Below are positions 8,881 to 47,967 of a stretch of DNA of 64,000 nucleotides, one piece after another. Numbering within the stretch: the stretch's first letter is position 1; every line of letters begins with the position of its first letter. The translations under genes and the position numbers were made by a program. The notes below the pieces were generated by a model. The model worked only from the letters and a program-made list of their open reading frames with translations, was not told where the DNA came from and searched no databases. Origin of the DNA: Thermoanaerobaculia bacterium (GTDB lineage Bacteria > Acidobacteriota > Thermoanaerobaculia > UBA5066); the NCBI GenBank assembly GCA_963719225.1, contig CAVRAY010000001.1, positions 2,336,001 to 2,400,000 on the forward strand, written 5' to 3'.

Positions 8881-11800
8881 ATGATGCGATCCCTGTTCGG
8901 GCGGCGACGTCCCGTGGAGGAAGTGCCTCTCCGGGGCGAGATCCTGGGCCTCGAGAGCCTCGAGGAGCGCGCGAGGACGCTGGCCGGTATCTTCACGCTG
9001 GCGCGAGACTCCCGGGCGGACAGGCACGACGTCCGAAAGCGGCTGGACGCGAATCTCCGCGTCCTTCGCGAGGCCTACCGGGTCCTGGCCGGCGACGTCC
9101 GTCGGGGTGACGCCGTCGATCCCGCCGCCGAGTGGCTCCTCGACAACTTTCACCTCGTCGAATCCGAAGCGCGGGCGGTACGTCACGACCTCCCTTCGAG
9201 GTACTACCAGAAGCTCCCGAAGCTCGCCGCGCGCGAGCTCTCGGGCCGGGCCCGCATCCACGCGATGGCGCTGGAGCTCATCCGGCACGGCGACGGACGG
9301 CTCGACGCGGAGCGGCTCAACCGCTTCGTCCTCGCTTACCAGACGGTCGCGCCGCTGACGATCGGCGAGCTCTGGGCGTGGCCCAGCATGCTCAAGCTCG
9401 CGCTCCTGGAGAACCTGCGGATCCTGGCCGCGGGGATCCTGTCGGGGCGAGCCGCAAGGCGGGAGGCGGACGCCGCGCTCGAAAGGCTGGCCGGCGGCGG
9501 CCCGCCCGAGCCGCTTCCCGACCCTCTTCACAGCGCATTCGTCGCGCAGCTGCGGCACCGGATGCACGAAGCCGATCCACGCGTCTCGTCGCTTCATGCG
9601 CGGATGGAGGAAGCATTTCCCGAGGGCGGCCCGACGTCCGAGGACGCCGTCCGAGCCGAGCACCAGCGTCAGGCCACCGACCAGGCCTCGACGGGCAACA
9701 CGATCACGAGCCTGAGGCTCTGCGCCACGCTCGACTGGAGCCGCTTCGTGGAGCGGGTCAGCCTGGTGGAGCAGATCCTGCGCCGCGATCCGGCGGGCGT
9801 CTATACGCGCATGGATTTCCAGAGCCGGGACCGTTACCGCCAGGCCGTGGAGGACCTCGCCGAGCCCACGGGCGAGGCTCAGGTGCGTGTCGCCCTGCGC
9901 GCCGTGGAGAGCGCACGCCAGGCGGCGGAGAAAAAGGGAATCGGCGAGAGAGCCGCCCACGTGGGTCACCACCTGATCGGCCCGGGTCGGGTCGGCCTGG
10001 AGATCGACGTGGCATACACGCCGCGGCTCGGCCAGCGCCTCCGCCGGTTCGCCTTCGCCCACGCGACGGCGGCGTACCTCGGCGGCGTCGGCCTCCTGAC
10101 CGGCCTCGTCGTCTACGCGGCGATGAAGTACGTGGGAGCCTCCGGGGCTCCGCAGTTGGCGATCGCCGCGGCGCTTCTCGCGACGATCCCCGGGAGCGAG
10201 CTCGCGGTTCTCATCGTTCAGCGTCTCGTCGCCGCGTTCGTGCCGCCGCGGCGGCTGGCCCGCGTCGACCTCATCGGGGGCGTTCCCGAGAGCGCCCGCA
10301 CGATGGTGGTCGTGCCGGCGCTCTTCGGAGGCGTGAAGGGCGTCGAGGCTCTGCTGGAGCACCTCGAGGTGCAGGCCCTCGGCAACCTCGATCCGCACAT
10401 CCACTTCGCGATCCTCGGCGACTTCAAGGACGCGCCCGCCCAGACCATGGAGGGCGACGCGGAGATCCTGGCGGCCGCCACCGCCGGGATCGAGGACCTC
10501 AACCGGCGCCACGCGACCGAGGCTAAAGACCGCTTCTTCCTGTTCCACCGGGAGCGCCGGTGGAACGCGAAAGAGGGCGTGTTCATGGGCTGGGAGAGAA
10601 AGCGGGGCAAGCTCGAGGAGCTGAACAGACTGCTCCGCGACGCGGGCGACACCGGCTTCATCGTGCGTCAGGGGGAGCTTTCGATCCTGCCGTCCGTCCG
10701 CTACGTCCTCACGCTCGACGCGGACTCGCGGCTTCCGAGAGGCGCCGCGCACACCCTGATCGGGATCCTCTCCCACCCGCTGAACAGACCCGTCTTCGAT
10801 CCGTCGGTGGGACGGGTGACGGAGGGATACGGAATCCTCCAGCCACGAGTCAGCGTCACGCTCGCGAGCGCCGCCGGGTCGCTCTTCGCGCGGGTCTATG
10901 CCGGCCACACGGGAGTCGATCCGTACACGACGGCCGTCTCCGATACCTATCAGGATCTCTTCGGCGAGGGCGTCTTCACGGGCAAGGGGCTCTACGACGT
11001 GGACGCCTTTCGCGCGGCCGTGGACGGGCGCGTCCCCGAGAACGCGCTCCTCTCGCACGACCTCTTCGAGGGCCTGCACGCGAGGACCGGCCTCGTCTCC
11101 GACGTGGAGGTGGTGGACGACTATCCCGCGAACCTCCTTGCGCACGCGCGGCGCCAGCACCGCTGGGTGCGCGGCGACTGGCAGATCCTGGCCTGGCTCC
11201 TGCCGATGGTCCCGACTCCGAGGGGCTTCGCGAAGAACCGCCTGCCGCTCATCAGCCAGTGGAAGATCCTGGACAACCTCCGGCGGAGCCTCGTCGCTCC
11301 TTCCCTTCTCGCTCTCTTCGCTGCCGCCTGGACGGTCCTGCCCGGGAACCCGCTCGCCTGGACACTCGCCGGTCTCGCGGTCGTTTCGTTCCCGCTCGTC
11401 ACGTCGCTCCTCCACCTGCTGAAGAGGCCGCCCGCGTACGAGCCGGCCCGGGTCCACCTGCACGGGCTTCTCGAGGAGCTGAGCACGGCTTCCGCGCAGG
11501 CACTCCTGACGCTCGTCTTCCTCCCCTACCACGCATGGGAGATGGTGCATGCCATCGCCCTGACGCTCGTGAGGCTCGTCATCACGCAGCGCCGCCTGCT
11601 GGACTGGGAGACCGCCGCGGCGCAGGCGGCGCGGGCCGCGTCGCGCGAAGGAATCCGCCCATTCCTGGCGGAGATGGCGGCGAGCCCGATTGCCGCGGCC
11701 GTTCTCGTGGCTCTCACCGCTGTGGCGCGTCCCGGCGCTCTTCCCCTAGCTCTGCCTTTTGCCGTTCTCTGGGCGATCGCGCCCTTCCTCGCCTTTTGGC

Positions 11801-14800
11801 TGAGTCATCCGGTCCCGCCGCGGCGGCGCGAGCTGTCCCCCGCGGATCGCGAGCTCCTCCTCGCGGTCGCCCGGAAGACCTGGAACTACTTCGAGACGCT
11901 GATCGGCCCCGAAGGCCACGGCCTTCCTCCCGACAATCTCCAGGAGGAGCCCGCCCGCGTCGTGGCGCACCGGACCTCGCCCACCAACATCGGCATGGGC
12001 CTTCTCTCGACGCTCGCGGCTCACGATCTGGGTTTCCTGCCGGCGGACGCGATGCTCGAGAGGCTCGAGGAGACTCTGACGACCGTCGAAGGGCTGGAGC
12101 GACACGAGGGGCATCTCCTGAACTGGTACGACACGCGGAATCTCTCGGCGCTCCTTCCGCGCTACGTCTCCACGGTGGACAGCGGCAATCTCGCCGGGGC
12201 GCTGCTCGCGCTGGCCGAAGGATGCCGGCGGCTGGCCGCCTCGCAACCGCCGCTTGCCGCGCGCCTCCTCGACCTCGCCCTGCGCGCCGCGTCTTTCGCC
12301 GACGGAATGGACTTCGCGTTCCTCTACGACCGCGAGCGCCAGCTGTTCTCGATCGGCTACCGGCTGGCCGACTCCGGGGGCCCCGGCCGGCTGGACAGCT
12401 CGTACTACGACCTCCTCGCCTCGGAGGCGCGGATCGCGAGCTTCTTCGCCATCGCCAAGGGGGACGTCGCGCAGAGTCACTGGTTCCACCTCGGGCGGCT
12501 CGTGGTGAGCGTGGACGGCGTCCCGACGCTCGTATCGTGGAGCGCGTCGATGTTCGAGTACCTGATGCCGCTCCTCCTGATGAGGACGTATCCCGGGACG
12601 CTCCTCGACCAGACATATCGCATGGCCGTTCGCAGGCAGCGCCAGTACGCGCGCGACCGTGGCGTGCCCTGGGGCATCTCCGAGTCGGCGTTCAACGTCG
12701 TGGACCGGCTCGGGAACTACCAGTACAAGGCCTTCGGCGTTCCGGGTCTCGGGCTGAAGCGCGGGCTGGCCGACGAGCTCGTGGTCGCGCCCTACGCGAC
12801 CGCGTTGGCCGCGATGGTGGATCCGGCGGAAGCTGCGCGAAACCTGAAGCGCCTCGCGGCCGCGGGGGCCGAGGGGGCGTTGGGCTTTTACGACGCCGTC
12901 GATTACACGCCGCGCAGGCCGGAGGACGCCGCCTCGCCTGCTCCGGCGCGCGGTGTCGGGGCAAGCGAAGGCGTGATCGTGAGAACGTACTTGGCGAACC
13001 ACCAGGGGATGACTCTCGTCGCCCTCGCGAACGTCCTTCTCGGCGACGTCATGGTGGACCGGTTTCACGCGGATCCCAGGATCCAGGCGACCGAGCTCCT
13101 CCTGCAGGAGAGGGTGCCGCGCGAGGCTCCCGTCATCCAGCCGCGTCCCGCGGAGGAAACCCGCGTGGTTCCCACGGTCGCTCGCGCCCCGCGCCGCCTC
13201 CGCTCGCCCCACACGCCGTACCCGCGCGCGCAGATCCTGTCGAACGGCGCCTATGTCGCGATCGTGACGAACGCTGGCGGAGGAGCGAGCTTCTGCCGGG
13301 ACCGGGCCGTCACGCGGTGGCGCGAGGACCCGACGCGCGACCCGGGCAGTCAGTTCATCTATCTGCGTGACGTCCGCGGCGGCGCGGTCTGGTCCGCCGG
13401 CTATCAGCCCGTCGGCGTGGAGCCGGAGAGCTATCTCGTGGAGCTCCTCCCCGAGAAGGCCGTCATCCAGCGACGCGATCACGGCATCGAGACGCGCCTG
13501 GAGGTCGCGGTCTCGCCCGAGGACGACGCCGAGGTCCGGCGGGTCTCCGTGACGAACCGGAGCGACTGGCCGCGCGAAATCGAGCTGACGAGCTACGTCG
13601 AGATCGCGCTCGGATCCATCTCCGAGGACGTCGCGCATCCCGCCTTCGGGAAGCTCTTCGTCGAGACCGAGTGGGTGCCGGAGAGTACCGCCCTCCTCGC
13701 GCGGCGCCGCGCGCGAGGCCCGCACGACCCGGCTTTCTATGCCTTTCACGTCCTGTCCATCGACGGACGGATGCAGGCTCCCGTCGAGTGGGAGACGGAC
13801 CGCATGCGATTTCTGGGTCGCGGGCGCGGCCCCGACGACCCGGTCGCTCTCGACGGGCGGGCGCTCTCGGGCACCACGGGCGCCGTGCTCGACCCGATCC
13901 TCAGCCTGAGGACGCGGCTGCGCCTCGCGCCCGGCGCCTTCGCCCGGCTCTCCCTCGCGACCGGCGTCGCCGCGGACGAGATCGCGGCGCGCGCGCTCGC
14001 GCAGAAGTATCGCGACCCCGGCGTCGCCGCCCGCACGTTTGCCCTCGCCTACACGCACGCGCAGGTCTCGATCCGGCACCTGGGCATCTCCGCCGAGGAG
14101 GCCCAGCTCTTCGAGCGCCTCGGCTCCCGTGTCTTTTTCTCCGACGCGTCGCTGCGCGCCGAACGGGACCTGCTGGAAAAGAGCACCCTGGGACAAGCGG
14201 GCCTCTGGGGACACGGCATCTCGGGCGATCTCCCCATCGTCCTGGTCCGCGTGACCGAGCCGGACGACCTGCCGCTCGTGCGTCACGTCCTGATGGCGCA
14301 GGAGCTCTGGCGCCTCAAGGGGCTGAAGGCGGACGCCGTGATCCTGAACGAGCATCCCGCCAGCTATCGCGACGAGATGCACGAGCAGCTCGTCGAGCTC
14401 GTCGAGGGCGGCGCGTGGGGCGGATGGCAGGGGAAGCCCGGAGGCATCTTCCTTCTCCGCGGCGATGCGATGCCGGACGCGGAGCGGATTCTCCTCAATA
14501 CGGTCGCCCGCACGGTTCTCTCCGGAGAACGCGGGGAGCTGGAGGAACAGCTCGACCGCCACGAGCCGGAGCCCGTGTTTCCTGTCACGGCCCGGCAGGC
14601 CGCCGAGCCGGCGGATGTCGAAGAGCCGGAGGCGCCGGTCGAGCCTCCGCCTCTCGTCATGGAGAACGGGCTCGGCGGCTTCACGCGCGACGGCGGCGAA
14701 TACGTGGTCGTCCTCGAGGGCGAACGCGAGACTCCGCTCCCGTGGGTCAGCGTGCTCGCGAACCCGGGGTTCGGAACCATCGTCACGAGCTCGGGCGCGG

Positions 14801-17132
14801 CCCACACCTGGTGCGAGAACAGCCGTGAGAACCGCCTCACACCGTTCGCGAACGATCCCGTCACCGACCCGACCGCGGAAGCGATCTTCATGCGCGACGA
14901 GGAAGGCGGCGCCGCCTGGGGAGCCACGCCGGGGCCCCTGCAAGCGGACGTCACGCTCCCCGCGGTGGGCGGTACGCCACGCGCCCGGCGTGACGCGCTG
15001 GCAGAGCGCCGGGCGCGGCATCGCGCAGGAGCTGGCGGTCTTCGTGTCCCGGAACGAGCCGGTCAAGCTGTCCCTTCTGACCGTCACGAACCGCTCGAAC
15101 CGGCCTCGCCGGCTCAGCCTCTTCGCATACAACGAGTGGTCGCTCGGACCCCCGAAACCGGGAGTGGCGCGCTCGTGGTGACGGAGCGCGACCCGGACAG
15201 GGCGCGGTCTTCGCGCGCAATCCGTACAGCGAGGACTCAGCGGCCGCGTCGCGTTCGCGGGCGCCAGCGAACGCCTCTTCTCGGCCACCGGCGACCGCCG
15301 GGAGTTCCTGGGCCGCAACGGCTCGCTCCAACGTGCGGCCGCGTTCATGCGCACGCGGCTCTCGGGCCGCTTCGGCGCGGGGCTCGATCCCTGCGCGGCC
15401 CTGCAAGTGGCGTCGACCTCCTGCCGGGCGAGACGCGGCGCGTCGTGTTTCTGCTCGGCCAGGGCCGTGACCTCGTCGAGACGCGCGCGCTCTTCCGGCG
15501 CTACTCGGGAGCGGCCGGCCTCGCCGCGGCCGAAGCCGAGCTCGAAGTGGTGGAGGCGTTCTGGGAGGAGATGCTCGGCGCCGTGCGGGTCTCGACCCCC
15601 GACGACTCCTTCGACCTGCTCGTGAACAGGTGGCTCCTCTACCAGGACCTGGCCTGCCGGCTCTGGGCGCGATCCGGCTATTACCAGCCGAGCGGCGCGT
15701 ACGGTTTCCGCGACCAGCTCCAGGACGTCCTGGCGCTGATGTTCGACGCGACCCGACCTGACCCGCGAGCATCTCCTGCGCGCGGCGGCGCGCCAGTTCA
15801 CGGAGGGCGACGTGCAGCACTGGTGGGACGCGCTCGACCGGCCGCGGAATTCGAACGCGATGCTCGGACGATCTCCTGTGGCTGCCCGTACGCGCTGGCC
15901 CAGTACCTCGAAAGCGACCGGCGACGTCTCTGTCCTCGACGAACGGGTGACGTACCTCGAGGCGCCTGCCGTTCCAGCCGGGAGAGGCGGAGGCCTACGG
16001 GCTGCCGACGGTCTCGACGGAAGAGGGCCCGCTCTTCGAGCACGGTCTCAAGGCCATCGACCGCGCGCTGACGCCGGCTCCCACGGCCTGCCGCTCATCG
16101 GCAGCGGCGACTGGAACGACGGCTACAACCGCGTCGGGCCCCCGGGCCGCGGGGAGAGCGTCTTCGTCGGATGGTTCCTGCACGCGGTCCTGGGCGCCTT
16201 CGCTCCGCTTTGCGACGAGCGAGGCGACGCGCCGCGTGCCGGCGTTACCGCGCCGAGCGCAAGCGCCTCGGGCGCGATGCTCGAGCAGAGCTGGGACGGC
16301 GAGTGGTATCGGCGCGCCTACTTCGACGACGGCACGCCGCTGGGATCCGCCCAGAACGACGAGGGCGGCATCGACTCGGTCGCGCAGACCTGGGCCGTGC
16401 TCTCGGGCGCCGCGCCGAAGAAGCGGGCCGAGCGCGCGATGGATGCGGTGCGCGCCCAGCTCGTGAGACGCGCGTCGCAGGTCATCCTTCTCCTCTCGCC
16501 GCCCTTCGACCGCACGGCCCTCGACCCCGGCTACATCAAGGGTTACCTCCCGGGAGTCCGCGAGAACGGCGGACAGTACACGCACGCGGCCCAGTGGGTC
16601 GTCCTGGCCCTCGCGCGCCTCGGGTAGCGGCGACGAGGCGGCCGAGCTCTTCCACATGCTCAACCCGATCAACCACGCACGCACCGCCGCGGAGGTCGAG
16701 CAATACAAGACCGAGCCCTACGCCGTGGCGGGGGACGTCTACGACCACCCCGCGCACCGCGGTCGCGGGGGATGGACCTGGTACACCGGCTCGGCCGGCT
16801 GGATGTATCGCGTCGGCCTGGAGGGGATTCTCGGGCTCACGCGCCGCGGCGCCACTTCGCGGTGGACCCGTGCATCCCGTCGTCGTGGCCCGGCTTCTCC
16901 GATCGAATGGCGCTTCGGAAAGACCCGATACACGATCGAAGTCGAGAACCCGAACCGTCGCGGCGGCGGCGTCCTGAGCGCCGAGCTCGACGGAGTGGCG
17001 GCGGACTCCGCCGCGATCCCCCTCGTGGACGACGGCGGAGTGCACAGGGTGCGGATCGTCCTGGGGGCGCGGAAGGCGGTCTCCGGCGCCGGGCTGACGC
17101 CGGTTCCGGAAACGACGTCCCCTGCCCGGTGA
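8881..17132 (+). CDS. Cyclic beta-1,2-glucan synthase (Cgs/NdvB/ChvB type, GT84 plus GH94-like); 3' part frameshifted
   Basis: [83 protein letters not shown]. About 2750 codons over several frames after about 14.9 kb. Confidence 0.92.
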
Positions 17133-17174: not shown

Positions 17175-17669
17175 CTACGCAACCACCTCCGCAAGCACCT
17201 CGCCGAGCGTCACGCGCTGCCCCTCGGCGACGAACAGCTCCGTCACCGTCCCCTCGTGCGGCGCGGCAATCGGGTTCTCCATCTTCATTGCCTCGACGAG
17301 GAGGAGGACCTGACCGGCGCTCACGTAGGCGCCGCGCTCGACGAAGAGGCGCGTGATCACGCCGGGGATCGGGGCCTTCACGCGACCGTCGCCGCTCGCG
17401 GGCCTCGTGCCGGCGCTGTCGAGGTCGCGCACCTCGAGCGGGAAGTAGCCGGCCGCGGACCGCACCCACCTGAGCCCGGTGTCGAAGAGCGCCTCCACGG
17501 GACGGCCCTCGACGACGACGACGCCGAACGAACCCGAGGCGTGCTGGCGCGGCGAGAGCAGGACCTGCTCGCCGTCGACGGTCACGAAGGGCTCGTCCGA
17601 TGCGATCTGGCGCTGATCGAGCTCGACCGTGTAGGTCCGTTCTTCGAGCGTCACCGCGATCCGTCTCAT
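17175..17669 (-). CDS. Biotin carboxyl carrier protein
   Basis: VKAPIPG...VEAMKMEN biotinylation motif. Confidence 0.92.
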   Translation of the reverse strand: MRRIAVTLEERTYTVELDQRQIASDEPFVTVDGEQVLLSPRQHASGSFGVVVVEGRPVEALFDTGLRWVRSAAGYFPLEVRDLDSAGTRPASGDGRVKAPIPGVITRLFVERGAYVSAGQVLLLVEAMKMENPIAAPHEGTVTELFVAEGQRVTLGEVLAEVVA

Positions 17670-17685
17670 GTCGTTGCGCCTTTTC

Positions 17686-19175
17686 TCACGGGACCCGGCG
17701 GCTCTCGCGGAACCATCCGGTGAGCGCTTCCTCGGGCAGCTCGGGTTTGAAGTCGAGGTGGTGACGGACGTACGCGAGCGCCGCGGCGACGGCGAGGTCG
17801 CGGCGGTGGCGCTCGTCCCCGTCTCCCCGGAGCAAAGCGGGCGAGAAGAACGAAGAGTCGTATTCGCCGGCGCGAAAGCGGGGATCACGCACGAGCCTGA
17901 CGTGCAGGGACACGTCGTTCCCCACGCCGACGAACGTCATCTCGACGAGCGCCCGCGTGAGCCTGCGGACCGCGATCTCCCGCGTCTCGCCGCGGACCGC
18001 GACCGTCGCAAGCCCCGGATCGTAGGCTTCGGGCACGTCGGCGCCGGGCACGAGATGCGTGTCGGTGCGGACGTTCGGCCCTCCCGGGAGACGCATCCAC
18101 TGCACGCGCCCGGGTGAAGGCAGGAACCCGTGCCACGGGTCCTGGGCGTTGATGCGGCACTGGATGGAATGGCCGCGCGTCGCCGCCGCCTCCGTCAGCG
18201 ACGCATCGAGGAGCTCGCCCGCGGCCAGACGGAGCTGCCAGGAGACGAGATCGATCCCGGTCAGCATCTCGGTCACCACGTGCTCACGCTGGAGCCGGGG
18301 TTTGATCTCGGTGAAGAGGAACCGTCCGTCCGGCAGCCCGAGAAACTCGACGGTGGAGGCGCCGCGACAACCGAACAGCCGCGTGAGCCGCCCGGCCTTC
18401 TCGTGGAGCTCGCGCCGGGCCGCGGAACCGAGCCACGGGGACGGGGACTCGTCGACCAGCTTCTGGTTTCCGCGCTGGACCGAGCCCTCGCGCTCTCCCA
18501 GCACGGCGATCTCTCCGGCTTCGTCGGCGAGGACCTGGACGCCAAGGACATGGACGCGGCGGAAATAGCGCTCGAGGAAGACCCGGCGGTTGCCGTAGTT
18601 GAGCTCGGTCTGCTCCTGGGCACCTCTGAACGCCTCGACGAACTGCTCCGGCTTGCGCACGAGGCGCATGCCCCGGCCGCGCCCGCCACGGGTCGACTTC
18701 ACGAGGAGCGGGTAGCCGAAGCGGGCCGCGTCCTCCTCCGCCGCCTTCTGCTGCCCCTCGTCGTAGGACCTCGGCGAATGCTCGGGCGTCTCGAAGCCCG
18801 CTGCCTCTGCCGAGCGCATCGCGCCGACCTTGTCCGAGACCGCCGAGAGCGCCGTCGAATCGGGCCCGACGAATCGGATTCCCGCCGTCTCGCAGAGCCT
18901 GACGAAACGCGAGTTCTCGGCAAAGTAGCCGTAGCCGGGGTGGACGGCGTCGCAGCCGCGCGCCTTCGCGATCGCGAGCAGTTGCTCCGCGTCGCGGTAG
19001 CCGAGCGGGCCGGTGAGCTCGGCACACCCGTCGGCGAGCCGGACGGCAAGGGCCTCCCGCTCGAGAGGCTCGTACACGGCAACCGACGAGAGTCCGAGGT
19101 CGCGGCAGGTCCGGAGGACGCGCACGGCGACTTCGCCCCGGTTGGCCACGAGAACGCGCCGGAACGCGCCCGAGC

Positions 19176-19179
<4 letters not shown>
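17686..19179 (-). CDS. Biotin carboxylase subunit of an acyl-CoA carboxylase
   Basis: [42 protein letters not shown]. Confidence 0.92.
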
Positions 19180-20754
<1,575 letters not shown>

Positions 20755-20759
20755 GGTGG

Positions 20760-21503
20760 TCCTTTCCGAGGAGCGCCGACGACCGCGCGGCCAGCGTCAG
20801 GACGAAGCGGCCTCGAACGCTCCAGAGGCCCGAGAAAGGAATCTCGCCGGCGCCAATGCCGGCCGCGCAGAGGGCGTCGAAGCGGCGCCAGGCTTCCCTT
20901 CTGGGGCGGAGAAGCTCGTCCGCAGGCTCGATCGAGAGGCGGATCTCCACGCTTCTCGTGTCGACGGAGAGTCCGAGTGAAAGAGCCTTGAGAACCGACT
21001 CCTTCGCGCTCCAGATCGCGTTCGCGAGAAGGGGTTGCTCCTCAGGAGGGGACTCCTCCCACGCGGCGGCCTCGGCGGGCGTGAAAAAGACGCTCGACGA
21101 AAGCCCGGGAGCGCGGCTCGATCCACTCGACGTCGCCCCCGATCGCGGCTTTGCCCGTCGGCGCCGGGAGGAGCGCGCAGAACGCGGCGCCATGCGCGTG
21201 GCTGACCGAGAGGCAGACCGGCAGCCGCTCTCCCGAGACGAGACGAACGAACGGAGCACCCGAGCCCTCGGTGGCGATCTCGAACGTCTCGGGCCCAAGC
21301 GCGCGACCGAGGATGTCGGATGCGGAGTCGCTCACGAGGCGCTTTGCGGTGAAGCGGCCGAGGAGCCACTCGTCCCGCCTCTTCGGCACGTGAAAGGTCG
21401 CGAGGCGCGCGTTCTCGAACGGCGTGAGCCAGGCAACGGGTGGATTGCAGTCCGGCAGCCCGGCCAAAGTCTCGAAGGCGGTCCGGAGCGACGTCTGCGT
21501 CAT
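20760..21503 (-). CDS. Sfp-type 4'-phosphopantetheinyl transferase, frameshifted; 3' end uncertain
   Basis: [30 protein letters not shown]. Confidence 0.85.
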
Positions 21504-24500
21504 GGATTGCCTCGAGGGTCACGCCCTCCTGGAACGCCACGGTGCGATAGCCGTTCACCTCCACGAAGACGCGCCCGTCCTCGTCCACGACCGCGCGTCG
21601 AAGGAAGACCCGGCGTCTCTCGCCGTGACGAGCGCGAAGAGCCGCCGGCCTCCGCTGTCCTCCTCGCCGCGGGAGACGCGAATGACATCCACGGAGGCCG
21701 GCAGCGCAGGCGCTGCCGCCTGAAAGCTCCCAGACCCCGCCGTCTGGAAGCAGAGCTCGAGCAGACGGGGCGCCGCGAGTGACGCGGCGGACGAGGGCGC
21801 CGCATTCGGGGGCAGATCGGGCGCCATGGATCCGAGAGCCTCGTCGCCGTTCAGCGAGACCCCTTCCAGAACCCGATAGGCCGGCCCGTGGAAGTAAACG
21901 CGGTAAACCGCGTCTCGGGTGATCGGCAGACCGCTCGGTCCGGGAGGCGTGAACGCAACCGCCGGAGGCTCGGGCACGGTTCCGAGGACGACGCGGGCGC
22001 CGGAAGTGGACGAGCCTCACTGCAGCTGAGCTCCGGCTTCGGTCGCACCTCCGAGCGGAGGAGCGTGTCGAAGACGACTCGCCGGCTCGCGGGATGCGCC
22101 GCGGCGCTAAGGTAGAAGGGTCTGCGGCTTCATGCGGTAGAACTTGAACGGGCCTCTCGAAGACGACATCTTCGTGCGCGCGAAGCCGTCCCCCGACGCG
22201 AGCGGTCGCGACCTCGGCGAAGGCTTCGGCGCCCATCACGCCGGCAGCAGCGGCGTCCCCTCGATCTGGTGATCGTAGAGGAACGGCTGAACGTTCGGGT
22301 CGAGCGTCGTCTCGACTTCCAGACCCGCCGTAGAGCGTCGCCGCCTTGACCGCGCCGATCATGCCGAGCGATGCGTACGCCGCCCAGTCGGCTGACCTTC
22401 GGCAGGTCGAGCCCGCCCGTCCCGTCCGAGTTCCTTGCAGGACGCCGAGCCGCTCGCCGACGACGATCTCGCCCCGGAAGCCGCCCGCGACCAGCTCGCG
22501 CCGCACGGTCGGGATACCGGACTCGGGCGGCAGCATGTCGATGCCCGCCATCTCCATGATCCGCGGGATCGAGCCGCGCGTCGCCATGCCGATGCCGCCC
22601 CACGCCGTCCAGTCGATGGCGATGCCGCGTGTTTCTGGTCGCCAGTGGCGTAGAGCTGCTGGTGATCTTGCACAGCAGGTCGTTGGCGGCGCTGTAATCG
22701 GTCTGCCCGCTGTTGCCAAAGCGCCCGGCGACCGAGCTAAAGGCGACCGTCGCGCCGATGCGGCAGATCCCCTTCGCCGCTGCAGCAGGCTGAAGAAGCC
22801 GTCCGCCTTGATGTCGAAGACGAGATTGAACTGCGCCGCGTCCTTATCGCCCAGATTGCGGCTGATTTCGACGCCGCCCGCGTGGACCAGCACGTCGATC
22901 CGCCCGTACGGCTGGCGGATTTCCTCGACGACCGCGCTCGACCGCTGCGCCGTCGAGCAGGTTGACGCTGCGATAGTAGGCTGTTCCGCCCGCCGCCTGA
23001 CCGCCTCGACTGCCCGCAGCGCCGCTTCCTCGCGCTCAATCGCCATGATCTGCTTGTCGATCTGCGCAGGAGTCGGGCTTTCGCCCGCCGCTTTGCGCTC
23101 CTCGATCAGCGCCGCCTTGAGCGCATCCTTGTCGCTGCGGAAAAGCGCGATCTTCGGATCGTTCGCGTCGGGCAGCGCTGACCAGATCGAGCAGGTAGAA
23201 AATGCCGCCGCTCGCTGCCGCCAGATCGCCGACGATGGCGCTGGTGATGCCGCCCGCCGCCCCGGTGACGAGGAACACGGTATCTTTGCCGAGCGTCAGG
23301 CCGGGCGCGCCGTCGGCGGCGGGCTGCTCCACCAGCGTGACGCTGTAGCGATTGCCGTCGTAGTAGCCGACCTCGACCACGCCCGGATCGCTCAGCGTTT
23401 CGGCGATCAGCGCGTCCGCCGGATCAGCCGTCTTGCGGCTGACTTCAAAATCGACCGCTTTGACGAGCGCATCGCCGCGCTCGCGCTTGTAGGCTTTGGC
23501 GAAGCCGGTCACTGCCCCGCCGAGCGGCGCGCTGCGCGCCGTCCGCCGTAGCCATGCAGTCCGCCCAGCCGCGTCGCGGCGATCAGGAAAGTCCCTGCCG
23601 TGCTGATCGCGTCGTAGAGGACGCGCATCGTGATCGAGAGGTTCTTGACGCGCTGGCGGTTGAGTTCGCGCCACAGCTCCAGATCCAGCTTCGAGCGCCG
23701 GTTCCACGTCGAGCGCGGGCAGCCAGTAGACGCCCTGGATCGCGCCTTCGCTCAGCCACGCCTTGACCTGCGCTTCCAGCGTCGGCGCTGTTGGGCGCAT
23801 TCTTCGACCGTCAAGCGCGGTCACGCCGCGTTTTTGCAGCCGGTTGATCAGCGCCTTGACCGACGCCGCCCATGTCGAGCGCGACGATCACGCGGCTGTT
23901 TTCATCGAGCGTCACGCCGTCGGCTTGCACCAGTCGAGCGGCGGGCGCAGCGATGGCACAGGCACGCGGCGCGGGATGCGATCCGCCGCTTCGAGCGAAG
24001 CACTCCGGACGTACGGCGCAGGACGCGACGCCGGCGCAGGCGTCGGCGCGCTTCGGGCTCCGGCGGCTGCGCCAGGTCGGGCGCGACTCGCGCACGAAGT
24101 CGATCACTTTCGCCAGCGTCGGGTAGTCGCGCAGCTTCAGGTCGTCGCGGCGCGGAATGTCGAACGCCTGCCGGATCGCCGCGAACGTCTCCGCCTGCTT
24201 GACCGTATCGATCCCCAGGTCGGCTTCCATGTCGAGATCGAGTTCCAGCATCTCCACCGGGTAGCCGGTCTGCTCGGCGACAATCTCCAGCACTTTCGCC
24301 GTCACTGGCCGCCGCCCGCGCATGCGGGCTGGCGCTTCGGGCGGCGCTTCGGTGATCGCCGAGGCTCCGTCGCGTTCGCGGCGACGGTGCAGGCGGACGC
24401 TATCCGGTTCGGGCGGCTGCGCCAGATCGGGGCGCGAAGTCGCGCACAAAGTCGATCACCTTCGCCAGCGTCGGGTAGTCGCGCAGCTTCATGTCGTCGC

Positions 24501-27500
24501 GGCGCGGGATGTCGAACGCCTGCCGAATCGCCGCGAACGTCTCCGCCTGCTTGACCGTGTCGATCCCCAGTCGGCTTCCATGTCGAGATCGAGTTCGAGC
24601 ATCTCCACCGGATAGCCCGTCTGCGCGGCGACGATTGCCAGCACCGTTCGCGACCAGCGGTCGGTCCGCTGGCGGGCGCGGCTGGCGAGTCGGAACAGGC
24701 GGCTCGACGCGCTGCGGCACCTGCGAGACCGCTCAGGGATTCGGGCTCGACTTCCACCTTGACGCACTGGCACCGGCTGGGCTCGGCACGATCTCCGGCT
24801 TTCGGTCTTGGGACGGATGCGGCGGGTCTCCGGCGCGTGCGACCGCGCGAGCGCTGGACGGCGGCACCGGCAGCGGCGTTGGCGGCAAATGGCGTGCGCA
24901 CCGTCGGCCCGTGCCGGAGCGCCAGACGTTCGGCGCGGGGGCGCGCGGCGGAAAGCCCTGCTCCTTGACGCGCAGCACGCGCTTGACGACTTCGGTCTCG
25001 GCGCTGTCGTAGCCGCTGACGGCATCCAGCCAGTGCTGATAGAGCGGCGCGTTGTCGACGCGGTTCAAGCCGCCGGGGATGCGTCGGGTCAGCGTCATCG
25101 CGATCTGCGAGCCGAAGCCCGCCGCCAGATGCAGCACGTACTGCACCGGGTAGCGTCCGCCCCGGCTCAGGTTGAGCCTGCCGAGGTCGGGATCGACTTC
25201 CTTGAAGTTCGGCACAGGCGGGACAATGCCGTGTTCGAGGATTTTCACGGCGATCACGTCCTCGATGCCGACGCCCATCGGATGCCCGGTGAAGCCCTTG
25301 GTGTTGGCGATGATGATCTCGCTCGGCGGCGTCGCCGAAGGTCTGGCGCAGCGCGACGACCTCGGCCGCAGCGCTGCCGCCGCGCGCGGGCGTGAATGTC
25401 TCGTGCGACATGAAGACCATCTGCGGCGCCATCGCCGCGCGATGCAGGCCGAAGCGCCGCTCCGCCGCCGTGACCAGGCTCTCCATCACCGGGGCGATGT
25501 GGTCAACGTCCAGGCGCGTGCCGTGATAGGCGCTGTTGCGCGTCTCGCTGCTCAGCACTTCGACGATTCCGCGCATCCCGCGCTCGCGCACCGCGTCTTC
25601 GCTCTCGACCACCAGCGCGCAGGCGCCCATGCCGAGGATCGTGCCGTGACGGCGGCGGTCGAACGGGAGCGCCGCTTCGTCGACGCGGTCGTCGGTGGCG
25701 GCTGCGCCCGTCGCCAGAAAGCCCGCGCCGACCCATTCCATCAGGTGTTCGCTGGTCACGTCGTCCGCGCCGATCACGATCACGCGGCGGCAGCGCCCGG
25801 CGCGAATCCAGTCCTCGGCCATGCCGATCGCCTGAGTCGTGCTGGCGCAGGCGGCGTTGACATGGGTGTTCGGGCCGCGCGCGCCGACATACTCGGCGAA
25901 CTGGCTGTGACCCATCGCCAGGATGCGGAAGAGGAAGCGGCGGTCAAATTCATACGGCTCGCGCTCCAGCTAATCGCGCAGGTCAGCCGTCGCGGCGGCT
26001 GATCTCGCTCAGCGTGTCGGCGTCGGTGGTGTAGCGGCGCAGGTCTTCGAGCAGCTCAAGCTGGTCGAGCCGATTTTGATAGGTGTAGTAGCGCCTGAAT
26101 TCGTCGGCGAAGCGGTCGCCGCCGGGGAAGGCGCTGGCGAAGATCACGCCGGTTTCGTCGCGCAGGCTCGGCGGCAGCATCCAGCGATCCGGCAGGTGCT
26201 TGCCGGTCGAGGTGGCGCGGTAGGTCTGCACCAGCGGAATGCCCGCCTCGCGCAGCGCATCCAGCCCGGCAGCCATCGCCAACTGGGTCGTGATGTCGAG
26301 CGCCTCGATCAGTTTTTCCGGCACGCCGTATTCTTCGTGCAGGTCAAACGAGCCAGGGCGCCCGGCCAGCTTGATCACCTCGTCGGGATCGTTGATGGTC
26401 TCGAAGCTGCCGCTGCCGTCCTCGGATTTGACCAGCCGCGTGACGTGCTTGGCGAGCATCCGCTTGCGGAAGCGCTCCGGGATCAGGTCGATGAACTGCT
26501 CGCCGCGCAGGATGCGCTGCGGCGTTGTCGGGGTCCATCACCGGCTTTTCGGCGCCCGGCAGACCCAGACCCGTCCCGCTGATGATGATCGAGCCGGCGG
26601 GCGGATCGTTGCGGTCGAACGGGCGCGGCGCGACTGCCTGCTGAAGCGTCTGTACCAGCGCGCTGAGCAGTCTCCAGCGAATAGCGGCGCTGAGCCGTTG
26701 GGTGAGGGCATGGTTCACGTCAGTCCTTCTGGTTGAGTGAATGGCGACAGGTGGCGGCGCAGACGGCTGTCTGCGCGCTCGCGGATTCGCTGTAGTAGCC
26801 GGCTGCGTACAGGCCGCACAGCGCCTGATTAAACGAGGGAAGCTCGCCCTGCTTGGGATGGCAGGTGAACAGCGAGAGCACGTCGGTCTGCCCGGCGAAC
26901 ACGTCGTCGGCAAAGCCCTTGAGCGCCCGCTTGGGCCCGACTTCGACGAAGGTGCGCACGCCGTTGGCATAGAGCGTTTCCAGCCCCTTGACCCACTGCA
27001 CGGGCGAGGCGATCTGCCGTTGCAAATGTCCTTGATCGCTTCGACGCTCGTCGGGTAAAGCTCGCCGGTCACGTTGGCGACCAGCGGCAGCTTCGGCGGC
27101 GCGATGTGCAGCCGATCCAGCACGCGGCGCAGCGGCTCGCTGGCCGGAGCGACGATCCGGGTGTGGAAGGCGTGGCTGACCGGTACCTGCACGACCTTGT
27201 AGCCCTTCGCCTCGAACAGCGCGATCGCCTGCTGCACCGCATCGCTGTCGCCGCCGATCACGCACTGGCTGCGGCTGTTGATGTTCGCCGGGACAACGTA
27301 GCCATCGATCTCCTTGAGCGTCGCCTCGACCACGTCAATCGGCGCGATCACCGCCGCCATCTGGCCGTTGTCGTCCATGCTGACCTTGCTCATCTCGCTG
27401 CCGCGCGCGGCGGCGGCTTCGAGCGCGTCGGCAAACGGCATGATCCCGGCGGCGATCAGCGCGGCATATTCGCCGAGCGAGTGCCCCATGACCATATCCG

Positions 27501-29607
27501 GCTTGAAGCCGTAGGCGTCCAGCAGGCGGTAGATCGCGATGTCGAGCGTCAGCATGGCGGGCTGGGTGATCGCCGTCTGCATCAGATCGAATTCGGCCTG
27601 CATCAGCGCGGACGGATCGTCGGCATCGACGAAGATATACGAGGTCAGCGGCTTGCCGAGGATCGGCGTCATGACGCGCGTCGGCTTCCGCGAACACCTC
27701 GGCGACCAGCGGCGAGACGCTTCGCCAGATCGCGCCCCATGTTGACATACTGGCTGCCCTGACCGGGGAACAGGAAGGCGACCTTGCCGGGCTTGGCCGC
27801 TGCCCCGGAAAATCCCCTGCGGCTGCATCGCCTTCCATGCCTGCGGGTTGTCGAAGCTCATGGCTTTGCTGGCGGTTTGCAGCCGCGCCAGCAGTTCGTC
27901 GTGATCGCCGAAGTCGATCACGAGGCGTTCGCTGCGCGCGCAGATCGAGCGGGTTCGGGAAGGCGACCGGCGGCGTCCAGCCGGACTGCACGCGCTTGAG
28001 CGCGGCATCGAGTCTTCTCTTGCAGTTCTTTCGGCGTGGCCGCGCCGAGCGCGAGAGATGCCGCGCAGCGGCGCAGGACGGCGGGGTCGAGACTTGGCCG
28101 TTGGATGGCGATCGCCGTTCGTCGCTGGCGCTGTCGCCGTTGACCGACACGCCAGCGTACGACTTGCTCTTTTGCGTCAGCGTGCCGGGGACATGTTCCT
28201 CCATCACGAGGTGGAAGTTCGTGCCGCCGAAGCCGTAGGCGCTCACGCCCGCAGCGGCGCGGCGTGCCGTCGGGCTTCGCCCATTCGCGCGCTTCGTGAT
28301 TCAGGTAGAAAGGGCTGTGCGCGAAGTCGATATTCGGGTTCGGGCGCTCGGAGTTGAGCGTCGGCGGCAGAATTTTGTGGTAGACGGCCAGCGTCGCCTT
28401 CAGCAAGCCCGCCGCGCCCGCGCCGGCTTTCAGGTGGCCGATGTTGCTCTTGACCGAGCCGAGCGCGATGCTGTGCCGCGCGGCGCCGTGCTGCCGAAAA
28501 TCTTCGCTCAGGCTCTCGACTTCGACCACATCGCCGACTCTGTGTGCTGGTGCCGTGCGCCTCGACCAGCGTCGCCGTCGCCGGGTCAAGCCCGGCGTTT
28601 TCCCAGGCGCGCTGGATGGCGAACTGCTGCCCGACCGGGTTCGGCGCGGTGATGCCCTTGCCGCTGCCCGTCGCTCGAGCCGCCGACGCCGCGAATGACC
28701 GCGTAGATCTTGTCGCCGTCGCGCTCGGCATCGTCCAGCCGCTTGAGCAGGAACGCCGCCGCAGCCTTCGCCCATGACAAAGCCGTCGGCGCCGTCGCCA
28801 AACGGGCGGCTGCCGGTCGCGCTCAGCGCGCCGATCTTGCAGAACTTGACGAAGCGTCGAAGCGCCCATGTTGCGATCCACGCCGCCGGTGATCACGGCA
28901 TCGACACTGATGCTCGATCAGCAGCTCGACGGCGGCATTGACGGCGGCGAAGCTGGAGGCGCAGGCGGCGTCGGTGATGAAGTTGGGTCCGCGCAGGTCG
29001 AGCACGTTGGCGACGCGCCCGGAGACGATGTTCGCCAGCTCGCCGGGCATCGAGTCTTCGGTGACGGGCGGCAGCGTGTCGTCGATCACGCCGTGCCAGT
29101 GGTCGCGGATGGCGCTGCGCACGTCCTGCAGGCAGCGCCTGAAATTCGGGCGACGGCTTCGAGCGCACGCGCGTATTCGGGGAACGAAACGCGCAGATGC
29201 GTCTGATAGTGCAGCTCGCCGCCCATCGCCGTGCCCAGAATGACCGCCGTCCGCTCGGTGTTCAGCGGTCGTTCGGGATAGCCGTAATCGGCCAGCGCTT
29301 CGGCGGCAATCGTCACCGCCCACTGCTGCCCCTGATCCATGGCGGCGGCGACTCGCGGCGGGATGCGAAAGCGCTTCCAGTCGAACTCGAAGCCGCGCAC
29401 CCAGCCGCCGATCTTGCTGTAGGTCTTGTCCGGGCGGCTCGGGTCGGGTCATAGTAGTCGGCCGTGCTCCAGCGCTCCGGCGGCACTTCGGTGATGCTGT
29501 AGCGTTTGTTGAAGATATTGTTCCAGAAAGCGGACGCGTCGGGCGCGTCCGGGAGAATGGCGCCCAGCCCCACAATCGCGATGGCTCGTTCGGCGTCTTT
29601 CGCTCAT
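21500..29607 (-). CDS. Type I (PfaA-like) PKS/FAS: KS-AT-KS-ACP-ACP-KR-DH; heavily frameshifted
   Basis: KS1 DAACASS (Cys codon 28961-28963), [12 protein letters not shown]; AT GHSLG, HAFH; KS2 NAACAST (25847-25849), [16 protein letters not shown]; two ACPs; [11 protein letters not shown]; DH-like LYDHQI, YFHGPAY. Confidence 0.88.
24075..24650 (-). repeat. Two near-identical tandem ACP-domain copies within the PKS
   Basis: Both encode [43 protein letters not shown](L/M)[16 protein letters not shown]. Confidence 0.9.
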
Positions 29608-29617
29608 GCTCTTCCCT

Positions 29618-31251
29618 CTAGCCGCCGCGAACGCCTCGACGAGCCCTCTGGCGACCACGTCCATATCGGCGATCAAGCCGGTCTGCGCCTGATAGAGCGC
29701 CGGCGAGGTTGAGTGCCGACGCGAGATCGGGTCGGTTTGCCCCGCGCCGATCGTCCAGCGCAGCCCGTCGAGGCGACCTTGAGGCCGCTTCGCGGGCGAA
29801 AATGCGGGCCAGCGCCTGGCGCGGCGGATATCCAGCGGGATCGCTTCGGTCGGTTTCTGACGACGCGCTCGGCGAAGACCGCCGCCCCTTCGGCATAGGC
29901 GATCAGCTCGCCCAGCCGGAACAGGACGTGCTGGCTGCGCGTCAGCCGGTCGAGCCGGCAGCGCTCGAAGAACGCGCCAGCGCGCGCATCGCCAGCGCCG
30001 CGAAGCGGAGCGCCCGTTGTCCGGCTCGAGCTGCCGCTCTGCGCTCGAGCCGCGCCGCCCAGTCGTTGTAATATGCGCCGCGCGTCTTCAGGTGGAGCTG
30101 CCAGCGGTCGCGCGCAATCGTCCACTCCATGATCTCGGACGTGCCTTCGTAGATCGTCGTGATGCGCACGTCGCGCTTGATCTTCTCGACCATGTATTCT
30201 TTGGTGTAGCCGTAGCCGCCGTGACGCCTGAATGGCGTCTTCGGCCGCTTTGTTGCCGGCCTCGGTCGCCAGATATTTGGCGACTGCGCCTTCGGTCGCC
30301 AGATCCTGTTCGCCGCCGTCGAGCCGCTCCGCCACCCATTCGATGTAGGTGCGCGCCGCTTCCAGCCGCGCGGCATTGGGCACGATCAGCTTATGGGTGT
30401 AGCCCTGTTTCTTGCTGAGGGGCCCGCCTGCCTGCACGCGCTCCTGCGAGTAGCGGATCGCGCGGCGCAGCGCTTCCCAGCCCGCGCCCAGACCGAACGC
30501 GCCGACCATCAGGCGGGTGTAGCCGAAGACGGCCTGCGCCTGCGCCAGACCCTGCCCTTCGACGCAGCCAACCAGCCGATCCGGCGTGACGAACACATCT
30601 TCGAGAAACAGCGCCGCCGTGTTGCTGGCGCGGATGCCATGCTTGTCTTCCGGCTTGCCCTGCGTGAATCCGGGCTGTCCCGCTCGACGATGAACCACGA
30701 CGGACCGCCCGGCGCGAGCGCCAGAATCGTGTACAGGTCGGCGACGCCGCCGTTGCTGATCCACTGCTTGCGCCCGGTGATCTTGTACCCGGTCAGCTGC
30801 CCGTCTTCGAGCACGGGGACGGCTTTGGTCGTCAGCGACGCCAGATCGCTGCCAGCCTGAGGCTCGGTCGCGCCGTAGGCGACCAGCAGCGACTCGTCGG
30901 CGAGCCGCCTCATCCAGTCGACTTCTGCTCCGGCGTCGCGCCGACGGTGATCGGGTCGGTTCCGAGGAACGTCGCCAGCACGCCGGTCGCAATGCCGAGG
31001 TCGATGGCGGCCATGACCTCGGAGACGCGATAAATGTCATGCGCTCCGCCGCCGAGCCCTCCGGCCTCTTCAGGAATAAAGAGGAGATGGAGACCGATCT
31101 GCGACGGGTCGTACAGATCTTTCAGGGTTTTCGCCGGGAAGGCATCTTCTTGATCGAGCTTCAAAAGGAAGGCAGGCGTGAGCTCCCGTTCCGCGTAATC
31201 GCGCACCGTCGACAGGAGCATCTCGAGCACGTCGGTATCGAGCCGCGGCAT
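29618..31251 (-). CDS. Acyl-CoA dehydrogenase family protein, frameshifted
   Basis: [53 protein letters not shown]. Confidence 0.9.
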
Positions 31252-34910: not shown

Positions 34911-34987
34911 TGGTCGGGACGGCGGGATTCGAACCCGCGACCCCTTGAACCCCATTCAAGTACGCTACCAGGCTGCGCCACGTCCCG
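34911..34987 (-). tRNA. tRNA-Pro(GGG)
   Basis: CGGGACGTGGCGCAGCCTGGTAGCG...anticodon loop ATGGGGT...GGTTCGAATCC...CCCGACCA; 77 nt with encoded CCA. Confidence 0.97.
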
Positions 34988-47637: not shown

Positions 47638-47901
47638 TCAGGCAGCCTTCTCGCGCACGAAGTCGCACAGGGCGTTCACGGATGCGAATGCCTTCACACC
47701 CACTTCCTCGTCCTGTACCTTGATGCCGAATTCCTTCTCCACGCCGAGGACGAGCTCGAGCGCGTCGATCGAATCGAGGCCCAGGCCTCCCTCCGCGTCG
47801 CCGAAGAGCGGCGCGTCGTCGGCGATCGTCGCGGGGTCCATCTCGAGCTTGAGTTGACGAACGATCAGCTCCTTGACTCTTTTCTTGAGATCTTCTGGCA
47901 A
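47638..47901 (-). CDS. Acyl carrier protein
   Basis: GLDSIDALEL (canonical Ser); TTG start with GGGAG RBS; TATACT box upstream at 47937-47942. Confidence 0.93.
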   Translation of the reverse strand: MPEDLKKRVKELIVRQLKLEMDPATIADDAPLFGDAEGGLGLDSIDALELVLGVEKEFGIKVQDEEVGVKAFASVNALCDFVREKAA

Positions 47902-47967
47902 CGACGTACTCCCTCCCGGGTTGGCCGGAGCCGAGGAGTATACGAGCGTCGGCGCCGGAAGAGCTCC

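Follow-up and report, generated by a model that had tools for sequence, protein, structure and literature searches.

The ACP domains of a megasynthase encoded in the window (the whole stretch of DNA analysed, 64,000 nucleotides from a Thermoanaerobaculia bacterium) carry threonine at the site where canonical carriers have serine, and the same threonine recurs in nearly all examined members of a large synthase family. From these sequence patterns we predict that phosphopantetheine is borne by the threonine and loaded by the phosphopantetheinyl transferase (PPTase) of the same cluster, with a probability of roughly 0.8. To our knowledge, the attachment serine is regarded as invariant, and changes from serine to other residues are routinely taken for dead carriers.

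Gene cluster and state of the window copy

The megasynthase has the domain order KS-AT-KS-ACPn-KR-DH, with two ACPs in the window copy. The features of the cluster are as follows.

29623..31251 (ends approximate), minus strand: acyl-CoA dehydrogenase-like flavoprotein (ACAD), putative enoyl reductase; about 7 shifts
21510..29600 (ends approximate), minus strand: megasynthase gene, of which L001 is an intact relative; about 43 one-base shifts, no in-frame stop
29591-28184, minus strand: KS1 of the megasynthase (tblastn, approximate)
27791-26795, minus strand: AT of the megasynthase (tblastn, approximate)
26595-25108, minus strand: KS2 of the megasynthase (tblastn, approximate)
24454..24662, minus strand: ACP domain 1 (tblastn limits, approximate); one base missing near 24570
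24556..24558, minus strand: threonine codon at the ACP 1 attachment site, reads ACG
24102..24305, minus strand: ACP domain 2 (tblastn limits, approximate); single frame, core of the domain without serine
24204..24206, minus strand: threonine codon at the ACP 2 attachment site, reads ACG
23380-22507, minus strand: KR of the megasynthase (tblastn, approximate)
22313-21591, minus strand: DH of the megasynthase (tblastn, approximate)
20745..21503 (3' end approximate), minus strand: phosphopantetheinyl transferase of Sfp size, from a clade linked to this synthase; about 3 shifts
19182..20719, minus strand: carboxyltransferase subunit of an acyl-CoA carboxylase; about 10 shifts
17686..19206, minus strand: biotin carboxylase; frame intact
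17175..17888, minus strand: biotin carboxyl carrier protein; the ORF probably extends upstream of the real start

The heavy frameshifting of this copy is probably sequencing error. Alternatively, the copy could make nothing, either as a pseudogene in decay or as foreign DNA that was badly assembled, and several observations point that way. By rough counts, one-base shifts affect the synthase (about 43), the ACAD (7), the PPTase (3) and the carboxyltransferase (10), with none in the biotin carboxylase; a KS2 match is found in 0 of 3 congeners; the nearest synthase DNA belongs to Chloroflexota, with 78-83% identity over the best segments; and assembly contamination stands at 6.2%. However, the best path through the gene has no in-frame stops, the catalytic motifs remain legible in their frames, and the GC content of the locus is in line with its surroundings. 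Insertions and deletions without nonsense changes are the typical look of long-read errors. Decay or misassembly is thus unlikely, and the reading of the family would hold even then.

Threonine codons and the two ACP domains

The sequence-only reading had reported ACG codons in both ACPs, and these are indeed read on the minus strand at 24204-24206 and 24556-24558, each directly preceded by the conserved Gly-x-Asp of an ACP. In ACP 1, one base is missing just upstream of the motif, which is therefore out of frame with its own N-terminal half; with this correction, the codons stand in both copies.

ACP 2 scores 32.8 bits against the Pfam PP-binding model (PF00550; cut-off 20.8), and its threonine aligns with the column of the attachment serine in PigH and Streptomyces ACPs. 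In the predicted structure (mean pLDDT 79, superseding a single-sequence fold with pLDDT 56), helix II (H32-46) begins with the threonine. The model resembles ACP folds in a structure search (probability 1.0, with no match at E<=0.001). Of the canonical features of a PF00550 carrier, ACP 2 thus shows the four-helix fold and the family score, with threonine in place of serine at the start of helix II.

A codon that is read or edited as serine, or a threonine that is itself a sequencing error, would explain the observation trivially, and the assembly is error-rich at this locus. The synonymous base just 5' of the ACG codon differs between ACP 1 and ACP 2, however, so that the two codons do not stem from one shared read error. 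Moreover, all four threonine codons are used at the site in homologues (ACG 144, ACC 100, ACA 13, ACT 10), across many phyla; Nonomuraea gerenzanensis, represented by a RefSeq record, is among those with threonine at the site. The threonine is therefore real, and the earlier view that a single random error is improbable is upheld; we consider misreading or error a negligible prospect.

Conservation of the threonine across the family

The sequence-only reading had allowed for homologues that all carry serine. Instead, searches with the ACP found threonine in 267/267 copies from 80 loci, and searches with KS1 in 140/140 copies (from 56 of 60 proteins). With KS2 as the query, threonine was found in all 410 copies obtained from 119 of 120 proteins and in 47/47 copies from 17 genomes of the host phylum. 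Starting from the PPTase, where an ACP was reached in 24/80 loci, 76/76 readable sites have threonine. Among 354 ACP-like domains of distant representatives, 329 have threonine, 13 serine, and 12 are truncated or degenerate. In contrast, 269 ACPs in 58 unrelated synthases show no threonine, 262 serines and 7 other residues. This set, used as a control only, consists of unrelated multi-KS PKS and represents half of the KS1 outgroup listing; family members were removed by their own motif, and the control therefore cannot contain the family. The family comprises at least 543 confirmed stretches; it occurs in many bacterial phyla and in Asgard, Thermoplasmatota and other archaea.

Serine is the sole alternative to threonine among intact motifs. 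The five serine-bearing proteins represent five separate changes, and a single clade was rejected (AU p=2.2e-11). As only serine replaces threonine, and does so independently, the site appears to be held to a hydroxyl. The remaining catalytic apparatus is conserved as well: 51/51 long relatives keep the KS1 Cys/His/His, the AT Ser/His and the KS2 Cys/His/His, and the KR Tyr and DH His are retained in the variants listed.

The threonine domains might instead be docking or structural modules rather than carriers, with a stand-alone serine ACP carrying the chain in trans. Consistent with this, the accessible text of PMC3340395 reports that E. coli ACP S36T is neither modified nor functional, so that threonine is not accepted by default. 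Stand-alone ACP-size matches, which could act in trans, are present in 10/10 genomes of relatives checked and in the host genome (11/11 in all), and degenerate ACP copies do occur (6/354, in a few arrays). However, these degenerate copies have lost the whole motif, whereas threonine copies keep 21 invariant columns (49 sequences) and intact motifs hold threonine or serine only. No column of the ACP alignment has a conserved serine. Arrays of 1-6 copies occupy the usual carrier place in relatives, and 35 threonine-only synthases have a fused PPTase. Local HMM searches for an in-locus serine ACP had low sensitivity, recovering 174, 42 and 0 of 395 known threonine domains; the absence of such an ACP therefore rests mainly on gene spacing and on neighbour clustering, which revealed no recurrent ACP gene in ORFs of at least 120 aa. 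The stand-alone serine ACP of the window is real (47638-47901), as had been claimed, yet it is part of another cluster. Taken together, these observations make non-carrier domains quite unlikely, and of the two branches that the sequence-only reading had left side by side, the threonine-bound carrier is strongly favoured by conservation, by PPTase fusion to threonine-only synthases and by serine as the sole exchange.

The partner PPTase

The PPTase lies directly downstream of the PKS, as had been stated, from 21503 to about 20745. On the proposed check for co-occurrence, a PPTase is found within 10 kb in 64/67 loci, and it is fused to the C-terminus of the synthase in 39/150 representatives. 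Of these 39, 35, P0155 and P0217 among them, have threonine-only carriers and 24 pass all five motif checks with threonine only. Seven PPTase-fused synthases additionally have an N-terminal reductase-like domain, every one of them threonine-only.

The enzyme has the features of an Sfp-type PPTase, with about 240 aa, a His for CoA binding, Asp/Glu as Mg ligands and a catalytic Glu/Lys pair (the window copy being read across frameshifts), and it retains the residues known from Sfp (1QR0/4MRT) and human PPT (2CG5), namely His, Asp, Glu, Glu and Lys. Fungal FAS PPT domains also appeared in this comparison. A model of the L001 PPTase-ACP complex with CoA and Mg scored 0.84, the best control reaching 0.05; the mark applied to this score is reached by 116/157 solved complexes and 2/215 mismatched pairs. 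At least 92% of contacts were shared between runs, the partner pLDDT was at least 85, and the catalytic Glu180 contacts the threonine. Similar complexes have already been solved, so the pass may reflect memorisation by the predictor. By analogy with the mechanism described for human PPT (PMC2148441), the catalytic Glu would activate the threonine hydroxyl, which would then attack CoA, as serine does with known PPTases, to give an O-phosphopantetheinyl-threonine arm.

A hydroxyl-only constraint is compatible with any O-linked modification, and the threonine might be acylated directly as an ester, be phosphorylated by a Ser/Thr kinase or bear some other group derived from CoA, with no standard thiol arm. 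Since the partner is a PPTase with full catalytic residues, the KS and AT active sites imply standard thiol chemistry, and neighbour clustering shows no recurrent kinase or other modifying enzyme next to the cluster, we regard this as very improbable and retain phosphopantetheine as the predicted group.

Five residues past the second acidic Mg ligand, the PPTase has an Arg in 58/68 aligned stand-alone rows and an Arg or Lys in 38/39 of the fused set, and the PPTases share a small residue three before a conserved Trp. In the complex model, both positions are located at the predicted ACP interface. The triplet Asp-Thr-Arg was considered as a threonine-specific signature and rejected: it is present in 61-62/65 close PPTases, but the fused PPTases of threonine synthases do not generally share it, and no threonine-specific signature is thus established. 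Furthermore, PPTases of the same type also occur fused to one all-serine array (P0178) and, in P0220, P0287 and P0290, to Ser-Thr-Ser arrays, which does not support strict orthogonality. Ca. Heimdallarchaeum has an array of the Ser-Thr-Ser kind. Judged by these sequences, the PPTase is probably relaxed, accepting threonine or serine, and not threonine-only. The orthogonality of the PPTase proposed earlier is thus only partly supported. One-way insulation, in which host PPTases are unable to load the threonine carrier, is conceivable, at somewhat less than even odds.

Predicted function of the cluster

We slightly favour the view that the cluster works on its own as a fully reducing synthase of the fatty-acid type. 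The carboxylase would supply malonyl-CoA, the AT would load malonyl, the KS domains would condense, and KR and DH would process the chain. The last reduction would fall to the ACAD-like flavoprotein or, in other lineages, to a PfaD/FabK-type domain. As the cluster has no thioesterase, priming or release of the chain is probably the task of the second KS.

The ACAD lies upstream of the synthase in 59/60 loci; the exception carries PfaD, which is found in three further loci (4 in total). ETF genes adjoin the cluster in 8 loci. From this neighbourhood we infer that the ACAD is the enoyl reductase of the cluster, although its best NCBIfam match, acryloyl-CoA reductase, lies at 233 bits far under the cut-off of 640. 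A role as the host's only fatty-acid synthase was also considered and is unsupported for these bacteria, given the stand-alone ACP-size matches described above.

Comparison with known systems

The enzyme matches the 'Type R' secondary lipid synthase that Shulse and Allen catalogued from Koribacter, Solibacter, Elusimicrobium and Roseiflexus (2011, PMC3098273). As far as the accessible text of that paper goes, the two share a single pfaA homologue with KS-MAT/AT-second KS-fold domain-tandem ACPn-KR, a downstream PPTase gene, often a carboxylase, and an occurrence in Acidobacteriota and Chloroflexota. Type R has 3-6 tandem ACPs (five genomes), compared with 2 here and 1-6 in relatives. The same text describes the second KS as a chain-length factor; in the present family, 51/51 relatives keep Cys/His/His in this domain, which is therefore probably not a chain-length factor in the strict sense. 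Within the portions available, the paper gives a domain string without DH, no mention of an ACAD, no product and no biochemistry, and the words 'threonine' and 'serine' are absent from its main text. The founder proteins named in its supplement (YP_589544, YP_824341, YP_001277223 and YP_001875990) did not appear by name among the protein matches listed, which did include one partial Roseiflexus sp. protein (P0116).

Canonical serine ACPs and Sfp-type PPTases (Sfp, human PPT) share with the present pair the ACP fold, an attachment position where helix II begins, the PPTase catalytic residues and, according to the model, the docking mode; they differ in having serine where this family has threonine. 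The PUFA synthases PfaA-E, whose PfaA carriers have serine, share tandem ACPs, and L001 scores 1061.8 bits with the PfaA model TIGR02813, above its cut-off of 1010.1. In contrast to PUFA synthases, the one chain also holds a PKS-type DH and another active KS, and an ACAD usually replaces PfaD. Of the PfaB, PfaC and PfaD partners, the first two are absent among the recurring neighbours found by clustering and the third is limited to its 4 loci. Fungal FAS and enediyne PKSE, two self-activating synthases with serine carriers and one KS, resemble the 39/150 representatives with a C-terminal PPTase fusion.

We found no literature report of threonine-linked phosphopantetheine or of archaeal members of this synthase family, most subscription papers being outside the search. 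The threonines discussed in the accessible parts of PMC8683515 and PMC11744666 are other ones, and the main text of PMC8813620 contains no mention of polyketide, acyl carrier or phosphopantethein.

Implications

If the threonine is loaded, the invariant-serine rule and the annotation habit that depends on it fail in a family with hundreds of species. In its broadest form, which we hold only tentatively, the proposal is a large and ancient family of fatty-acid-like type I synthases, spread over bacteria and archaea, that runs on a new protein modification, O-phosphopantetheinyl-threonine, installed by its own PPTase and inaccessible to host PPTases. Such a pair would constitute a natural insulated carrier system, and a threonine-loading PPTase would lend itself to labelling proteins selectively and to building carriers shielded from the metabolism of the host. 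Serine revertants and mixed arrays provide ready controls in nature, and a cultured host, Nonomuraea gerenzanensis, is available, with an intact cluster on NZ_LT559118.1.

The archaeal members bear on the question of ACP-dependent fatty-acid synthesis in archaea, which seem to lack it according to the accessible text of a 2024 preprint (10.1101/2024.07.05.601840). If the proposal is true, archaea would possess self-activating, ACP-dependent fatty-acid synthases in the form of the single-chain versions, which combine a reductase, two KS, AT, threonine carriers, KR, DH and PPTase.

Threonine at the carrier site of the megasynthase

The megasynthase lies within a conserved gene cluster, and two further features of the window are listed with it.

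about 21510-29600, minus strand: megasynthase, domain order KS1-AT-KS2-ACP-ACP-KR-DH; an acyl-CoA dehydrogenase-like (ACAD) gene ahead, a PPTase and then a three-gene biotin carboxylase after it
24204-24206 and 24556-24558, minus strand: ACG (Thr) codons of the two ACPs
47638-49772: another cluster, holding a stand-alone Ser ACP and genes with a weak resemblance to AT and KR
8881-16071: 2,396-aa ORF, apparent frame shift near its end; by eye, presumably cyclic beta-1,2-glucan synthase-like

Both ACG codons named by the sequence-only reading are indeed present, and the PPTase lies directly downstream of the synthase, as it had claimed. ACP domain 2 is translated in a single frame, scores above the Pfam PP-binding cut-off, and has its Thr at the alignment position where PigH and Streptomyces ACPs have their attachment Ser. 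In a structure model built from 49 family sequences, the predicted fold of this domain matches ACPs, with the Thr modeled as the opening residue of helix II. ACP domain 1 lacks one base directly ahead of the motif. By a rough count against a single relative, the gene contains about 43 one-base shifts and zero in-frame stops; the shifts are probably long-read error. Because they break the megasynthase, we worked mostly with intact relatives.

The gene order and domains match the Type R cluster in the available text of Shulse and Allen (PMC3098273), and the window synthase likely belongs to this class; within that text, the main part contains neither "threonine" nor "serine". A scan of species genomes confirmed at least 543 stretches, the best 80 of which were kept for locus analysis. 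These 80 loci come from Chloroflexota, Acidobacteriota, Myxococcota, Gemmatimonadota, Actinomycetota and others, and gene order is kept across them. A KS2 search of three congeners gave no match, and the best-matching relatives of window 17175-31251 are Chloroflexota; together these results suggest either transfer or a fault in the assembly. A tRNA-Pro (34911-34987) lies about 3.7 kb upstream of this region, for which no difference in GC was found.

Breadth of the threonine carriers

Occurrence of Thr at the carrier site, by selection of sequences
ACP-selected loci (set biased by query): 267/267 copies, all four Thr codons in use
KS1-selected proteins (60 family proteins picked out of 120 matches): 140/140 motifs, 56/60 proteins
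PPTase-selected metagenome loci (ACP reached in 24/80; one site offset, one unreadable): 76/76 fully readable sites
Host-phylum genomes (KS2 match in 18/301): 47/47 copies read, in 17 genomes other than the present one
KS2-selected proteins: 410/410 sites, 119/120 proteins
Distant representatives (top 150 of 650 with E<=1e-30, lowest KS2 identity ~41%): among 354 ACP-like domains from 125 proteins, 329 have Thr and 13 have Ser, and the other 12 are truncated or degenerate
Control, 58 unrelated PKS proteins: 0/269 ACPs

The sequence-only reading would have been refuted by homologues that all have Ser; they instead show Thr, as in the sets of 267 and 410. Kinship links the counted sequences, and the counts are a measure of breadth, not a statistical test. 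By protein, the 125 distant representatives divide into 117 Thr-only, four Ser-only, two mixed and two with neither. On a KS2 tree of 123 rows, which leaves out proteins without a readable ACP and has a weak KS1-domain root, the five proteins whose intact motif has Ser represent five separate changes; a tree holding these five together was rejected (AU p=2.2e-11). Since Thr relatives surround each of them, the Ser carriers look like reversions.

The cluster PPTase

A PPTase is found within 10 kb in 64 of the 67 loci with enough flank and is fused to the synthase in 39/150 distant representatives. The fused proteins comprise 35 Thr-only, one Ser-only, one mixed and two without a readable ACP. 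All five motif checks were passed, with Thr only, in 24 of them, and seven also have an N-terminal flavin-reductase-like domain; Pfam NMO was confirmed in 4/5 scanned proteins with such an N-terminal domain. In sequence comparison, the cluster PPTase retains the residues active in Sfp and human PPT, the PPT mechanism being taken from the available text of PMC2148441.

The PPTase and ACP of an intact relative (L001), modeled with CoA and Mg, scored 0.84 (best control 0.05), a mark reached by 116/157 solved complexes and 2/215 mismatched pairs. Runs agreed on at least 92% of contacts, partner pLDDT was at least 85, and the catalytic Glu is predicted to contact the Thr. As similar complexes have already been solved, this model shows likeness only.

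The sequence-only reading had proposed an orthogonal PPTase belonging to the synthase. A linked or fused enzyme stands, but strict orthogonality is not supported: since the same PPTase type also serves one all-Ser array and Ser-Thr-Ser arrays, the enzyme is probably relaxed rather than Thr-exclusive. An Arg and a small residue at the interface are common to stand-alone and fused PPTases, with three PPTases of the window's genome as the Ser-type comparison. A candidate Thr-PPTase signature motif was rejected as general, being confined to a close PPTase clade.

Threonine as the probable working site

Family alignments show no conserved Ser in any other ACP column. A stand-alone ACP could instead act as a carrier in trans: matches of that size occur in 10/10 relatives' genomes examined and in the window's genome, and our searches for a Ser ACP inside the loci had low sensitivity. 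In E. coli, moreover, ACP S36T is unmodified and non-functional, according to the available text of PMC3340395. Loading of the Thr itself with phosphopantetheine is nevertheless the reading we favor, with a probability of roughly 0.8. In 51/51 long relatives KS1, AT and KS2 retain their catalytic residues, as do KR and DH in the listed variants. A chain that has all its catalytic domains and its own activating enzyme, yet Thr-only carriers, is difficult to account for if that Thr stays unloaded.

Reducing system and carboxylase

The AT motif is of one type in 51/51 long relatives, which we take to be malonyl. Many loci have a linked carboxylase: a PccB-like subunit occurs in 42, and a one-chain form with an ACC-central domain in 34, where its usual place is between synthase and PPTase. 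No enoyl reductase domain is present in the synthase. An ACAD gene is found upstream in 59/60 loci, the exception being L072, and a PfaD gene is present in L072, L075, L140 and L149.

L076:13583-19207: single-chain eukaryote-like acetyl-CoA carboxylase (BC, BCCP, ACC-central, CT; ~1850 aa)
L072:17478-18896, L075:5511-7124, L140:10875-12509: PfaD gene facing the PPTase, no ACAD seen in these loci

The ACAD query found no match in the L072 and L075 genomes, both possibly incomplete. L072 and L140 have an additional ACP between KS1 and AT. ETF alpha and beta genes lie beside the cluster in eight loci, and an N-terminal reductase-like domain occurs in 19/150 distant representatives. We infer a shared role for ACAD, PfaD and the fused domain, and the cluster would therefore be a complete reducing synthase. 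An AMP-ligase-ACP(Ser)-acyltransferase gene lies near the PPTase in L047 (14934-17873), L134 and L138, and FabH lies upstream in six others (L016, L024, L030, L045, L061, L071); these neighbors may point to how the chain is primed and to a use in lipids.

Cultured and archaeal hosts

In the cultured Nonomuraea gerenzanensis the cluster is complete, and it includes a single Thr carrier. The 11.85-Mb Nonomuraea record (L180, NZ_LT559118.1) is filed as a plasmid and, given its size, is probably the chromosome. By their source names, members, most of them from bins, also occur in Ca. Heimdallarchaeota, another Asgard archaeon, Thermoplasmatota and "Euryarchaeota" (P0148, P0155, P0160, P0178, P0217, P0230, P0287, P0290), with two Ca. 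Heimdallarchaeum species represented by 3-Mb contigs. Some are a single chain of reductase-like domain, two KS, AT, ACPs, KR, DH and PPTase, and are candidate archaeal type I fatty-acid synthases. A Ser-Thr-Ser array is constant in Ca. Heimdallarchaeaceae (P0220, P0285, P0287, P0290, P0294), with the PPTase fused in the full-length proteins, and provides a natural internal control.

We found no report of Thr-linked phosphopantetheine in the literature covered, with most subscription papers outside its scope; the cluster is already catalogued, and its Thr seems to be unpublished. If true, attachment of phosphopantetheine to Thr would extend a known modification to a new form.
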